From IMG/VR virus record IMGVR_UViG_2778261591_000007: a DNA stretch of 8,692 bases; one strand, 5' to 3'. Positions 502 through 4,356 of this stretch are shown here, in pieces (position 1 is the stretch's first letter; each line of letters starts with the position of its first letter). A program made the position numbers and the translations under genes. The notes under the pieces are model-generated. The model had not been told where the DNA came from. It saw only the letters and a list, made by a program, of their open reading frames with translations, and did not search any database. Origin of the DNA: a virus. Taxonomy: Duplodnaviria; Heunggongvirae; Uroviricota; Caudoviricetes.

Positions 502-1425
502 TCAGTAGTTATGTACTGAAGGAGGTAATTCTTTATTCTTAAGTCTCATCCATGCGGAAAGATTCGCTGGTCCGTCTGGCTCATTAATATCAACATCTCG
601 TGTGTGGTTTATTAAAACGTCTCTCGCCATTCCTATAACATACGAGAACTCATGACCGTAGTCGTAACATCTGCCGGAATAGTTCGATTGAATTTGTTTT
701 AGCGCCGGATACAATTCGCGGAATAATGCCTGTGAGCGGTTGGCATAATCCCATAACCATACGAGGCTGTTTGCTTCTTTTGCAGAAAGCTCGTTGGTTT
801 TCTTCTCTTGTTTGCAGATGAACTCACCTTCAAGCGGAACGCGAGCTGCAAGTGACAGTGCTTCGGTAAACTGCTCCTCACTAATTTCTTTGTACGAACA
901 TCCAAAATGGGATTTCAGTGACGACCACATGGTGATCATCGCCTTAGCCTGTTTTTCTTTTGGCAGAGACTGACCGCGACTCATGACGAGTTGTTTAATG
1001 GCTTCCTGCTGTTCAGTGGTGATTTTACCCTGCAACGCCTTTTTAGCTTTGCGTGGGTTAACTACATGGCCTTTAGTCCAGTACTCATAGAGCACATCGT
1101 CACACTCTTCCTGATACTGGATTACCTTGTCGCGGATTTCAGGGCGGACTTTGTTTGGACTGATGCTGTTCAACCAAGCTGCCAATTTTCGTAAAGCCAT
1201 ACAAATCATGGCTTGCACCCCACCGGCAGAAGGTATGGTGATTTCCACCATACCCTTCGAGAAGCGTTGAGAAATCTTCTTATGTTGAGATTTCCAGTCT
1301 AGCCCCATTCCCTCAACGATAGGTTTCATTGGGGTGTACGGTTCGCCGTTGTGATTGACAACATAAAGCTCTGCGCCGTGGAATGGTACATTGATAGTAG
1401 ATACTGCTGTTGCTATACTTTTCAC
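502..1425 (-). CDS. ant: Phage antirepressor (Ant-like)
   Basis: 307-aa ORF starting at GTG 1425 with an AGGAA Shine-Dalgarno upstream. N-terminus (…INVPFHGAELYVVNHNGEPYTPMKPIVEGMGLDW…) resembles the antirepressor N-terminal domain as I recall it. Size is close to P22 Ant (about 300 aa), and it sits immediately downstream of arc and divergent from mnt, exactly as in P22 immI. Confidence 0.7.
   Translation of the reverse strand: MKSIATAVSTINVPFHGAELYVVNHNGEPYTPMKPIVEGMGLDWKSQHKKISQRFSKGMVEITIPSAGGVQAMICMALRKLAAWLNSISPNKVRPEIRDKVIQYQEECDDVLYEYWTKGHVVNPRKAKKALQGKITTEQQEAIKQLVMSRGQSLPKEKQAKAMITMWSSLKSHFGCSYKEISEEQFTEALSLAARVPLEGEFICKQEKKTNELSAKEANSLVWLWDYANRSQALFRELYPALKQIQSNYSGRCYDYGHEFSYVIGMARDVLINHTRDVDINEPDGPANLSAWMRLKNKELPPSVHNY
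1391..1419 (+). promoter_or_regulatory. Candidate sigma70 promoter (Psar-like) pointing antisense to ant
   Basis: -35 TTGATA (1391..1396), 17-bp spacer, -10 TATACT (1414..1419) on the plus strand inside the 5' end of ant. Predicted start about 1424..1426, at the ant start codon. Confidence 0.4.
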
Positions 1426-1499
1426 GTCGTTAATTCCTATGCGTGGTTTTACGATACCGAAGCCCTGACTGTTCCCGCAGTTGGGGCTTCACTGTTTTG
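1424..1499 (+). ncRNA. sar: Candidate sar-like antisense RNA covering the ant ribosome-binding site and start codon
   Basis: Near-consensus promoter (1391..1419) followed about 35 nt later by a long hairpin (1459..1490; 13-bp stem with two G-U pairs, 6-nt loop) and a U-rich tail (TTTT at 1495..1498, then GATTTCTTTG). Predicted transcript about 70 nt, complementary to the ant SD and start. Matches the known P22 sar arrangement (68-69 nt antisense RNA in the arc-ant region). Confidence 0.4.
1459..1499 (+). terminator. Intrinsic terminator hairpin for the candidate sar RNA
   Basis: GAAGCCCTGACTG / CAGTTGGGGCTTC stem around loop TTCCCG, followed by ACTGTTTTGATTTC on the plus strand. The U-tract is separated from the stem by 4 nt, so efficiency is uncertain. 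Confidence 0.4.
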
Positions 1500-1658
1500 A
1501 TTTCTTTGCCGCATCAAGCATCACTTCTGAAAACGTGCGCTTGCCACTGAATACTCTTTCTCTTCTCAATTTTTCGTTCGTGCCAAATGATTCGCCATGA
1601 ACAAAATTTGGTCTTAAAATGGTAATCGCAATCTCTTTGACTACTGCATCCAAGCGAA

Positions 1659-1811
1659 TCACACCGTTACCCCCTCTCTCTTCAGGCTGTCTATCAGGCG
1701 CTTGATAACCTCTGAGTTAAACGACCTGCACTCTTCCTTTGCCCTGCTACCGATAGCATCCTTTAACGACTGCGGCATCCTTACCAAAATCTTACTTATT
1801 TCTTTCTCCAT
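1659..1811 (-). CDS. arc: Arc-like ribbon-helix-helix repressor
   Basis: 50-aa product MEKEISKILVRMPQSLKDAIGSRAKEECRSFNSEVIKRLIDSLKREGVTV. The core (MPQ…RSFNSEV…KREG) matches the P22 Arc RHH signature (MPQFNLRWPREVLDLVRKVAEENGRSVNSEIYQRVMESFKKEG). Start taken as ATG 1811..1809 with GGAGGG 5 nt upstream; the ORF-track start at 1847 is a TTG without an SD. Confidence 0.8.
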   Translation of the reverse strand: MEKEISKILVRMPQSLKDAIGSRAKEECRSFNSEVIKRLIDSLKREGVTV

Positions 1812-1847
1812 GTTACCCTCCACACAAACAACTCTTTTCGAATACAA

Positions 1848-1876
1848 AAGATAGCAAAGTGAGTATATCTAGTCAA
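1848..1876 (-). promoter_or_regulatory. Candidate Pant promoter with an inverted repeat in the spacer (possible Arc operator position)
   Basis: Minus strand: -35 TTGACT (plus 1871..1876), 17-bp spacer, -10 TATCTT (plus 1848..1853), about 35 nt upstream of the arc start. The spacer and hexamers carry an inverted repeat AGATA(1849..1853)-N12-TATCT(1866..1870). In P22 the Arc operator lies between -35 and -10 of Pant. Confidence 0.45.
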
Positions 1877-1893
1877 AATTTTTTTGCATACAC

Positions 1894-1905
1894 TTTGATA
1901 TCAAA
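1894..1905. promoter_or_regulatory. Perfect 12-bp palindrome TTTGATATCAAA in the mnt/arc divergent intergenic region (candidate operator)
   Basis: Read directly from the sequence; exactly self-complementary. Lies 18 bp upstream of the predicted Pant -35 and about 20 bp upstream of the mnt start (1926), where Pmnt and its operator would be expected. Confidence 0.45.
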
Positions 1906-1925
1906 TTGAATACCAAAGGTGTGAT

Positions 1926-2174
1926 ATGGCAAAGGGTGTGTCAATTTCTCCAACTACGGTAAGAATCCCTGAATCTTTACGCGAGGCTCTTTCTGTCAGA
2001 GCATCAAAAAATGGTCGCTCTGTTAACTCCGAGATCGTCATGATTTTGCAAGCCGCGATTGATGAAGATAGGTCGCCAAAGTCAGTTGAGTCATTTGCTC
2101 AGCAAGAAGCTGACAAATTCAAAGAGGCGCTGCTTGAGACGCTAAAGACCATGTATGGTAAGGATGAAAAATGA
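1926..2174 (+). CDS. mnt: Mnt-like ribbon-helix-helix repressor
   Basis: 82-aa ORF, the same size class as P22 Mnt. N-terminal RHH region (TVRIPESLREALSVRASKNGRSVNSEIVMILQAAI) parallels the P22 Mnt motif (…FRMPMEVREKLKFRAEANGRSMNSELLQIVQDAL). AAGGTG Shine-Dalgarno at 1916..1921. Divergent from arc-ant as in P22 immI. Confidence 0.8.
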   Translation: MAKGVSISPTTVRIPESLREALSVRASKNGRSVNSEIVMILQAAIDEDRSPKSVESFAQQEADKFKEALLETLKTMYGKDEK

Positions 2175-2745: not shown

Positions 2746-3144
2746 CTATCTATCAAGCCATATAACAAAAAATGTCGATCCAAGACGATAACCAACCATG
2801 GCTTTCAAATCATCAAATCTAAAAGCCAAGAAATGATCTACGTCTTCCGTTATATGACTGGGGATACCTGCTTTAATTGCACCCCTTGCAATCTTCTCAA
2901 ATCCAAGCTTATGCCTACCTTGCTGCTTAATATCTGCCCATGTTAGTTGACTTAATCTGTATAATTTATCAGCTAAGCCAGCTTTCTCATCTTTTTGGCA
3001 TTTCGTTATGCAGTGAGAGCTTTGGATGTAACAGAATGAAAATTTCGGTTTCTTTTGATCTGAATTCCCCCCTGACTGCGGCCCTAACTTTAACTTACCT
3101 GTAGATTCAGCAGGGGGGATAATCCTTTTAGATTTTCTTGCCAT
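2746..3144 (-). CDS. Hypothetical basic protein (132 aa), downstream partner of the Panacea-like gene; candidate toxin/effector
   Basis: ATG 3144..3142 lies 4 nt after the upstream gene's stop (TAACGAGATG), suggesting translational coupling. Product has a Lys/Arg-rich, probably disordered N-terminus (MARKSKRIIPPAESTGKLKLGPQSGGNSDQKKPKFSF), a Cys/His cluster (CYIQSSHCITKC) and a C-terminus ending …HFLAFRFDDLKAMVGYRLGSTFFVIWLDR. No family recognised. The longer track ORF (to 3219) starts at TTG and overlaps the upstream gene by 71 nt, so the ATG start is preferred. Confidence 0.5.
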   Translation of the reverse strand: MARKSKRIIPPAESTGKLKLGPQSGGNSDQKKPKFSFCYIQSSHCITKCQKDEKAGLADKLYRLSQLTWADIKQQGRHKLGFEKIARGAIKAGIPSHITEDVDHFLAFRFDDLKAMVGYRLGSTFFVIWLDR

Positions 3145-3148
3145 CTCG

Positions 3149-3592
3149 TTAGTTAATCCGAGTTGCAAAGTACTCTGCCATCTCCTTAGAACTAATTTCA
3201 GAACCACCAACACCCTCAATATAGTTTGATCTCCATGGTGACTCTTCGTGTGTCATGTTCCTCAGTTTCCAGGCAGAAAATTGCCCAAAAACATCCCAGA
3301 CTTCTTCTAATAGCTCTAACTGTTCTTCGCTGAATTTTTCAGCATCAAAAGACTCTGGAGAAGGGATAGCACCATTACCATATTGTTTATAACGGTGATA
3401 AAGCTCAGGGACAACAGGGCCATGCATCCAAGCTTCCATCTTATTCTGAAAAAGAGGCTCGCCAAGCAACGCCAATGAAAAACCCTGAGCATAGTAAACA
3501 AGCTTTTGTAATTTTAAATTAGAGATTGCGTCACCGCTATCCTCGTCACACCGCGACAGGAAGTAGTCGGCGACATCAAAACAAGTAAGCAT
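3149..3592 (-). CDS. Panacea-domain (DUF4065, SocA/GepA-like 'phage-associated protein') antitoxin-type protein
   Basis: Start taken as ATG 3592..3590 with GGAGG 7 nt upstream (the track start is a GTG two codons earlier). The segment DVADYFL…ISNLKLQKLVYYAQGFSLALLGEPLFQNKMEAWMHGPVVPELYHRY matches the DUF4065/Panacea signature as I recall it (T/N-KLQKLLYYAQ…G.PLF…EAW.YGPV.P.VY). Confidence 0.7.
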   Translation of the reverse strand: MLTCFDVADYFLSRCDEDSGDAISNLKLQKLVYYAQGFSLALLGEPLFQNKMEAWMHGPVVPELYHRYKQYGNGAIPSPESFDAEKFSEEQLELLEEVWDVFGQFSAWKLRNMTHEESPWRSNYIEGVGGSEISSKEMAEYFATRIN

Positions 3593-3966
3593 GAACACAC
3601 CTCCATCTTGATAGCCACAGCTAAGTATCCAACTATGTCAAATGTCATTTAATACTATAACAAAGCTATCAGCAATCCTTCGGAGGCTAACTTACAACCA
3701 CTTTAGCGACATGTTTAAACCATTACGTTTCACATTTACTGCATTTTCGCCGAAGTTACCTATAAGGTAATGTCACATTTCCTGCAAGTTTCATGCAATG
3801 TTGAAAAGTGAGCTATTCACTTTTCTATGACACCAAACACCAAAAATAGCACTTTTTGCTAAATCATTCGTCCAAGTTGTGGATGGTTTGTCGTTGACAC
3901 ATTTTCACACACCGCTCCACCAATAAAGTATCATCTGGTATCCTGCTCAAAACTAAGGAGGTTAGT
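3593..3966. promoter_or_regulatory. AT-rich divergent intergenic region with repeated motifs (promoters for the Panacea operon and the secreted-protein gene)
   Basis: 374 bp with no ORF. Direct repeats TCACATTTaCTGCA (3730..3743) and TCACATTTcCTGCA (3772..3785) flank an inverted repeat TTACC-tataa-GGTAA (3756..3770). Related TGTCA/CACATTT elements at about 3635..3650 and 3894..3910. TTGACA at 3894..3899 but no clean -10 at 17-bp spacing. Confidence 0.3.
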
Positions 3967-4356
3967 GTGAAGCGATTTCTTGCTGCTATGTTCTTATTCA
4001 TATCTTTTGGGGCTACAGCAGAGTGCTGGGTCGTTGGAGATATGCGCGGAATAAGCTATTCAGAACGAAATAATTTCCATCCGGAAGAAGATGGTTTTAG
4101 TGGAACATTCATCATTAAGACAAGCGGTGAAGATGCTAGCATCACATATTCTGGGACAGATGCGGGCGGCATGGCTTACAAAGTATTGTCTAAAAACTCC
4201 ATCATAGGAATCGGCGCGAATGGCGAAACTCAACGCGTTATCGACTCATGGGTAATACATCCTACTGGAACAGTTTTAATGTCAAAAACCATTTCCGGTT
4301 ATGGAAATATGGATTCAACCAAAGCTTTTGTTGGAAAAGTAAAAAGAAAATGTTAG
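3967..4356 (+). CDS. Secreted (periplasmic) hypothetical protein, 129 aa
   Basis: GTG start with AAGGAGG 5 nt upstream. N-terminal signal peptide MKRFLAAMFLFISFGATA with AXA cleavage (ATA|E). Mature part is beta-rich and Gly/Ser/Thr-rich, with Cys at both ends (AEC… and …KRKC). Convergent with gp16. No family recognised. Confidence 0.55.
   Translation: MKRFLAAMFLFISFGATAECWVVGDMRGISYSERNNFHPEEDGFSGTFIIKTSGEDASITYSGTDAGGMAYKVLSKNSIIGIGANGETQRVIDSWVIHPTGTVLMSKTISGYGNMDSTKAFVGKVKRKC

Follow-up and report, generated by a model that had tools for sequence, protein, structure and literature searches.

Candidate Mnt-type operator subsites in the arc-mnt control region of a P22-like Escherichia coli prophage

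Gene content of the immI region

The window (the whole stretch of DNA analyzed, 8,692 nt) is the secondary-immunity (immI) region of a P22-like (Lederbergvirus-type) E. coli prophage. It holds a complete P22-type immI module consisting of mnt, arc, sar, and ant, in the gene order annotated for P22, with mnt divergent from arc-ant and the whole set lying in the late operon between ejection-protein genes and the tailspike gene; the latter adjoins ant in the RefSeq annotation of an identical E. coli prophage. The arc-like gene (1659..1811, minus strand) encodes a 50-aa protein that matches Pfam PF03869 (E = 5e-12) and, in the PDB, Arc and AmrZ, and it is 39% identical to P22 Arc by BLASTP. The mnt-like gene (1926..2174, plus strand) encodes 82 aa, also with a PF03869 match and with 1MNT as its best PDB match, and aligns by BLASTP with P22 Mnt at 36% identity over 74 aa, the C-terminal region included. 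The module thus encodes two repressors of the Arc/MetJ fold, one short and one long, the long one with a C-terminal oligomerization region. The ant antirepressor gene (502..1425, minus strand) matches P22_AR_N and P22_AR_C (E = 1e-45 and 6e-30, respectively), and a full-length sar antisense RNA (1427..1493, plus strand; Rfam RF00262, 76.6 bits) with a terminator-like hairpin at 1459-1490 lies opposite the ant start. An earlier reading made from the letters alone (the sequence-only reading) had recognized here a divergent mnt/arc region of the P22 immI kind, and the gene layout together with the Pfam and Rfam matches supports that identification.

Over the arc-mnt stretch (1650-2180), the window matches E. 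coli OkiPb01711 with 100% identity; this stretch is present in 150 of 5,426 complete E. coli genomes, always on the chromosome. A stretch covering both arc and mnt (1445-2172) is 98% identical to phage phiv205-1. The immI variant as such is put at about 100-150 of these genomes, UPEC and APEC strains included. Of the very variable "ant moron" region, the P22 version is the only one to have been studied, according to the ε34 genome paper (PMC2629481), and no operator study of the variant in the window was found in the literature searched.

Three further features of the window concern its gene content. An extra 57-aa ORF (1489-1662, minus strand) lies between arc and sar/ant, its start overlapping the arc stop; Pfam gives no match for it, both RefSeq and phiv205-1 list it as hypothetical, and it is encoded in 59 fetched loci while absent from P22 and from the Serratia relative described below. 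A gene for a Panacea/SocA-domain protein (3598..3149, minus strand) overlaps a 157-aa ORF (3219..2746, minus strand), and together (2746-3598) they look like a toxin-antitoxin pair carried in the variable "ant moron." Between 2174 and 2489 on the plus strand, a signal-peptide-like ORF (MKRIAILLLLCLSSIANAEKKIRR, then stop) ends just past nine consecutive A (2227-2235); if there were only eight, it would read through into a 72-aa ORF at 2271-2489. The 2174-2489 stretch is unannotated in RefSeq and carried by no other fetched locus, and it could be a frameshifted gene, a phase-variable gene, or a sequencing error.

Promoters and conservation of the control block

Related immI types were gathered from scans of viral and metagenome contigs and share the core AGTCAAA(A/G)TTTTTTTGnnTACAC. 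The 105 metagenome matches to this core pattern were mostly in unrelated DNA, and 22 of the 91 distinct regions were immI-like. Members of the immI family differ in the repeats flanking the core and in the recognition strands of both repressor proteins, and on these differences we distinguish type A, to which the window belongs, from types B, C, H, and I and from the more P22-like types D, E, and G.

The Pant promoter that the sequence-only reading had predicted in the divergent region was recovered by a consensus scan as its sole minus-strand promoter and is consensus-like. Its predicted -35 hexamer, TTGACT (1876..1871), aligns with the annotated P22 Pant -35 (TTGACA), and a 17-nt spacer separates it from a predicted -10 hexamer, TATCTT (1853..1848), with an extended -10 TG at 1856..1855. 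Across types A, B, C, H, and I the AGTCAA at the -35 is invariant, and a TAnnTT hexamer is found at equal distance in all related immI types. Compared with P22 (TTGACA, 17 nt, TATATT), 11 of the 17 spacer bases are identical. Upstream of the -35 lies an A/T tract, CAAAATTTTTTTG (1874..1886), also conserved in types A, B, C, H, and I. It is part of a stretch missing from P22: in the window family, GTCAA and TACACT are separated by 12 additional bases, AATTTTTTTGCA, whereas P22 (cf. L004 2794-2800) has TACACT immediately after GTCAA. Judged against the known UP consensus, the A/T tract and 12-base insert appear to resemble a proximal UP element of Pant. The 12 extra bases also form a dyad, CAAAA-TTT-TTTTG.

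The mnt promoter is less clear. A candidate -10 hexamer, TACACT (1889..1894, plus strand), is invariant in types A, B, C, H, and I and remains uncertain, as it is not preceded by a good -35 and was missed by the promoter scan. TATCTA (1866-1871), the homologous counterpart of the P22 Pmnt -10, lacks the final T. Neither the consensus scan nor homology to P22 yielded a convincing sigma-70 promoter for mnt. Under either candidate -10, the palindrome described below would fall at or just downstream of the mnt transcription start.

We compared the window with the single relative recovered by a scan of genome contigs, a Serratia marcescens contig (L005) with homologues of both repressors (79% amino-acid identity for Mnt). 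A bidirectional control block (1840..1919), which begins near the Pant start and reaches the mnt Shine-Dalgarno sequence, is identical at 76 of 80 positions (95%). Its flanks are far more divergent, with 74% identity in the mnt coding sequence (23 of 47 third codon positions matching), 63% in the arc coding sequence, and 54% in the arc leader (1812-1839). The symmetric elements flagged by the sequence-only reading thus sit in an 80-bp block under strong purifying selection.

Symmetric elements and a repeated 12-mer

The perfect 12-bp palindrome reported previously is present as described: TTTGATATCAAA, at 1894-1905, is its own reverse complement. When the AT-rich intergenic region of 114 bp was shuffled 2000 times with dinucleotide composition preserved, 101 of the shuffles contained a perfect palindrome of at least 12 bp (p about 0.05). 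Another, GATGCTAGCATC, is found elsewhere in the 8.7-kb window at 4132-4143, within a coding ORF (3967-4356).

The second reported element, the inverted repeat AGATA-N12-TATCT (1849..1870), had been placed in the Pant spacer. Both arms exist (AGATA at 1849-1853 and TATCT at 1866-1870, 12 nt apart), but the left one is not part of the spacer, since on the minus strand it supplies bases one to five of the predicted -10 hexamer of Pant. Six 5-bp inverted repeats with gaps of 0-14 were observed against 2.7 ± 2.2 in shuffled sequence, and because 207 of 2000 shuffles reach the same count, we consider this symmetry to be at chance level. The Serratia counterpart reads TGATA-N12-TATCA. We evaluated this concerted-looking change between E. 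coli and Serratia as covariation of the two arms and dropped it as evidence for the repeat, given the shuffle result and a comparison with types H, B, and C, which shows two independent changes on an A...A ancestor.

A stronger signal, overlooked in the sequence-only reading, is a 12-mer, GATAKCAAAGTG, that occurs three times within 60 bp (1850-1861 on the plus strand, 1902-1891 on the minus strand, and 1897-1908 on the plus strand) and nowhere else in the window. Although the pattern was picked after the data were seen, its count of 3 against an expected 0.09, reached in 0 of 200 shuffles, is clearly above chance. A repeat finder likewise paired the arms 1850-1861 (GATAGCAAAGTG) and 1891-1902 (CACTTTGATATC) at 92% complementarity. 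The 12-bp palindrome sits at the center of an 18-bp near-palindrome, CACTTTGATATCAAATTG (1891-1908), 16 of whose 18 positions obey the symmetry, and GATAGCAAAGTG, which lies in the left part of the AGATA/TATCT repeat, is a third copy of the palindrome half-site. The view that the region holds two separate operators of different sequence is thereby not supported.

We resolve these repeats into 7-bp subsites. Site S2 is the plus-strand 12-mer GATAGCAAAGTG (1850..1861), whose subsite CAAAGTG (1855-1861) lies over the extended -10 and spacer of Pant. Site S3 is the near-palindrome (1891..1908), conserved in Serratia, with the inverted subsites CACTTTG (1891-1897) and CAAATTG (1902-1908) separated by a 4-nt spacer, their centers 11 bp apart. 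S3 therefore has the anatomy of a ribbon-helix-helix operator, namely at least two short subsites about one helical turn apart, and 11 bp is the subsite-center spacing used by Arc and Mnt tetramers. Two further, weaker copies are possible. On the mnt side, CAAAGGTG (1914..1921, plus strand), 12 bp past the second S3 subsite, is conserved in Serratia and aligns with a third subsite of type H (CACGGTG); it overlaps the mnt ribosome-binding site, however, and since the Shine-Dalgarno sequence also explains its conservation, we regard it as weak evidence. On the Pant side, CAAAAGA (1845..1851, plus strand; CAAATGA in Serratia) may be a weak subsite 10 bp before S2 and over the Pant -10. A direct repeat, GAATAC(C)AAAG (1840-1850 and 1908-1918), was considered as the motif of a second protein and rejected, as alignment with type H accounts for it better as a spacer plus a subsite of the same family.

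Natural polymorphism is consistent with subsites as the conserved unit. Among 118 type-A loci (18 haplotypes), the only variable positions in 1840-1922 are 1854 (G/T), 1860 (6 loci), 1878 and 1881 (both in one haplotype), and 1898 (A/C, 46 loci). The two common ones, 1854 and 1898, correspond to a single position of the 12-mer that directly adjoins the CAAAGTG and CACTTTG cores, and 1898 lies in the 4-nt spacer between the S3 subsites. Forty-six of the 118 loci carry TTTGCTATCAAA, so that 39% are without the perfect palindrome. It is therefore the 7-bp subsites that are conserved, and not the perfect palindrome.

Co-variation with recognition strands and candidate operators

The related immI types allow the subsites to be compared with the recognition strands of the two repressors. 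In type A, the Arc-like strand is SKILVRMP and the Mnt-like strand SPTTVRIP, with CAAAGTG in the Pant spacer and CACTTTG as the first mnt-side subsite; a variant of type A (L199, L273) differs only in its Arc strand, SRILVRMP. Type H combines that same Arc strand, SRILVRMP, with the Mnt strand APYSVRMP and has CAC[CT]GTG in the spacer and CACTGTG on the mnt side. Types I and B share the Mnt strand SPYGVRMP and the subsites CATCGTG and CACTGTG, with Arc strands of SRIVVRMP and DCIVRMS, respectively. In type C, the Arc strand APLGIRIP and Mnt strand SPLGIRIP accompany CAC[CG]GTG and CACTGTG. The palindromes of types A and B differ by a symmetric substitution (TTTGATATCAAA vs. TGTGATATCACA), also seen as TtTGATATCAaA in type A vs. 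TgTGATATCAcA in type B.

Two of these comparisons are informative for the assignment. Between the type A variant and type H, the Arc strands are equal, the Mnt strands differ, and the subsites differ; between types I and B, the Arc strands differ, the Mnt strand is equal, and the subsites are equal. The subsites therefore follow the Mnt strand and not the Arc strand: PTT[VI]R occurs with CAA/TTG halves, and PY[GS]VR and PLGIR occur with CAC/GTG halves, while no such correspondence was found for the Arc classes. Informative natural swaps are few, comprising about three Mnt classes and two informative pairs. Moreover, the mnt-side palindrome adjoins the mnt 5' end, so that recombination linkage or co-inheritance alone could mimic co-variation with the Mnt class. 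The Pant-spacer subsite is the stronger witness because it lies nearer to arc, and it provides the sole escape from the linkage objection.

These results bear directly on the sequence-only reading, which had proposed that the two elements are the likely repressor-binding sites of this immI variant and had implied that Arc binds the one in the Pant spacer. The conserved control block and the subsite family speak for repressor sites in general, but not for the AGATA/TATCT symmetry as an Arc operator, and the implied Arc assignment conflicts with the natural swaps, in which both the Pant-spacer and the palindrome subsites change with the Mnt strand. The position of AGATA-N12-TATCT is right for an Arc operator, yet the symmetry is not retained with the same Arc strand, as type H (SRILVRMP) has CATA or CGTA, and not GATA, paired with TATC. 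A k-mer search for 6-8-mers occurring two or more times in each of the five types whose Arc strand is like that of type A returned no Arc-class-specific element, its only output being the shared A/T tract and a GATATCA core, both of which also occur in type B. The lack of a separate Arc-specific motif could mean that the subsite family is shared by both repressors. In its residues K7, L9, and R11, the window Arc-like strand resembles K18/V20/R22 of AmrZ, which reads GGC half-sites (PMC3325190); half-sites of this type are absent from the window control region.

On balance, and with modest confidence, we favor the reading that both symmetries belong to one family of 7-bp ribbon-helix-helix subsites for the Mnt-like protein at the immI two-way switch. 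Mnt-type operators are the best reading because the subsites track the Mnt strand across natural immI variants. The block at 1840-1919 would then control transcription in both directions, from Pant leftward into arc, the 57-aa ORF, and ant, and from the mnt promoter rightward. We infer that the Mnt-like protein, which is probably a tetramer like P22 Mnt given that it aligns with the latter through the C-terminal oligomerization region, binds subsites of a CAAAGTG consensus with CAA/TTG half-units, possibly including the weaker copies at 1845-1851 and 1914-1921. In every immI type, the TG of the extended -10 coincides with the CA of the Pant-side subsite, so that occupancy of this subsite should occlude Pant. 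Mnt bound at the Pant copy (1855-1861) would keep the antirepressor operon off in the lysogen. The inverted pair at 1891-1908 would suit a dimer of dimers, and Mnt bound there would be expected to damp its own synthesis, a direct negative autoregulation; lying upstream of the UP-like tract of Pant, the palindrome-bound protein may also help to keep the Pant copy occupied.

P22 Arc and Mnt are the textbook models of ribbon-helix-helix DNA reading, and the window resembles P22 in several respects. Its Mnt-like protein, like P22 Mnt, belongs to the Arc family, is long, has its C-terminal region conserved, and is encoded divergently from arc-ant, and the candidate operator, like P22 Omnt, is highly symmetric, with two half-sites about one helical turn apart, and co-varies in sequence with the N-terminal recognition strand across phages. 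The Arc-like protein is likewise a short Arc-family protein encoded first in the Pant operon, and just as Oarc fills the Pant spacer in P22, a putative repressor site lies within the Pant spacer of the window. The candidate operator is unrelated in sequence to P22 Omnt (GGTCCACGGTGGACC). As the sequence-only reading had noted, the elements differ from the P22 operators, with neither Oarc nor Omnt matched at up to 3 mismatches. The Arc recognition strand is K-I-L-V-R in the window and Q-F-N-L-R in P22, the TAGA/TCTA boxes of P22 Oarc are absent, the spacer subsite follows the Mnt class, and the AGATA/TATCT symmetry, which is not conserved, has a center different from that of Oarc.

The layout also differs. 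P22 has a single Omnt just downstream of the Pant spacer, on the arc side and over the Pant start, whereas in the window the symmetric site occurs upstream of both the -35 and the A-tract of Pant, on the mnt side, where P22 has no operator, and an extra single subsite lies in the Pant spacer. No Omnt-like site was found over the Pant start on the arc side of the window, where the poorly conserved leader (1812-1839) lies. P22 Mnt bound at the Pant start indirectly raises Pmnt activity; in the window, by contrast, Mnt would be expected to repress the mnt promoter. Arrays of short units are familiar from other ribbon-helix-helix proteins: the met-boxes of MetJ and the sites of CopG and omega consist of 7-8 bp units spaced roughly a helical turn apart, as direct or inverted repeats, each bound by one dimer. 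AmrZ binds a short-subsite array of like kind, with one dimer per unit (PMC3325190). The window shares this array design, but its proteins are unrelated to these beyond the fold, and its putative units span two divergent phage immunity promoters. The proposed sites would be of an ordinary type, ribbon-helix-helix operators in a phage immunity switch, with a sequence and layout that appear to differ from those of the model system.

Four other explanations deserve consideration. The Arc-like protein might bind the CAAAGTG family, the spacer copy shutting Pant and the palindrome shutting the mnt promoter, so that two sites do the work of the single P22 Oarc after a 12-bp insertion had separated the promoters. 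We consider this unlikely but deserving of real weight, given that P22 Arc, and not Mnt, represses both Pant and Pmnt. The Pant-spacer position matches that of P22 Oarc, 11 of 17 spacer bases are as in P22, and the family does have 12 extra nt between GTCAA and TACACT. On the other hand, the strand SRILVRMP occurs with CAAAGTG (L199, L273) as well as with CACnGTG (type H), the unlike Arc strands of types I and B occur with identical sites, and the TAGA/TCTA boxes are not retained. Assigning the family to Arc would also leave Mnt without a conserved site, as the arc-side region, the place of Omnt in P22, is only 54% identical between E. coli and Serratia. It is also conceivable, if somewhat less so, and likewise deserving of real weight, that the subsites are common to the two repressors, with the Arc-like protein (a short dimer) and the Mnt-like protein (a long tetramer) competing or cooperating on one array and no separate Arc operator. 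This would fit type C, in which Arc and Mnt have one strand and all four subsites are CACnGTG, and the detection of a single motif family in types A, B, H, and I, with no Arc-class-specific element from the k-mer search. It sits poorly with type A, however, in which the two strands differ strongly (K-I-L-V-R vs. P-T-T-V-R) and the Arc strand is AmrZ-like, with the corresponding GGC half-sites (PMC3325190) absent here.

That the block is conserved merely for its two promoters, UP-like tract, and ribosome-binding site, with the symmetries incidental and binding nothing, is in our judgment very improbable. The palindrome and the inverted repeat are each near chance, one arm of the latter is the -10 hexamer, and 39% of loci do without the perfect palindrome; but the promoter elements are common to all types while the subsites shift with the Mnt strand, and do so symmetrically in both halves, the three-copy motif is far above chance, and both repressors must act within the 114-bp region. 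A role in RNA, with the mnt leader pairing 1890-1897 with 1914-1922 and thus hiding the ribosome-binding site, seems to us barely credible. The minimum-free-energy fold of 1886-1930 does pair both segments (-9.5 kcal/mol), yet its z-score is -1.8, 15 of 200 shuffles fold equally well, the palindrome's own symmetry goes unused in the fold, and the transcript would have to start upstream of 1890. The copy in the Pant spacer would be left unexplained.

If the Mnt-type reading is true, the same immI switch would be run with a different operator layout, with a likely shift of mnt from indirect positive to direct negative autoregulation. The immI types would also amount to a natural matched set of proteins and operators, in which one or two strand residues track a symmetric one-base operator change, and knowledge of them would aid prediction of mutual antirepressor immunity among P22-like prophages. 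A more extensive rewiring is a tentative suggestion that we think possible but doubtful: a single subsite family would serve the whole switch, Mnt would repress both Pant and Pmnt, and the Arc-like protein would have no operator of its own, either sharing the Mnt subsites or acting otherwise. Were this circuit real, types A, H, B, and C would be a ready-made set for swapping ribbon-helix-helix specificity, with T-T accompanying CAA and Y-G/S accompanying CAC.

Two groups of relatives show other arrangements. In the type C loci (L041-L051, L144, L146, etc.), Arc and Mnt have the same strand, [SA]PLGIR[IL]P, and all four subsites are CACnGTG, which suggests two repressors acting on what would be one operator family. 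P22 and types D, E, and G have a single arc-side palindrome of 15-19 bp, which also changes with the Mnt strand. In type G (L069 1363-1467), the Pant spacer contains, as GGTACGCAT, a repeat of one half of the palindrome found at the Omnt position (TGTATGCGgtaCGCATACA); a half-site copy in the spacer is the design seen in the window, but here it occurs in a P22-like layout.
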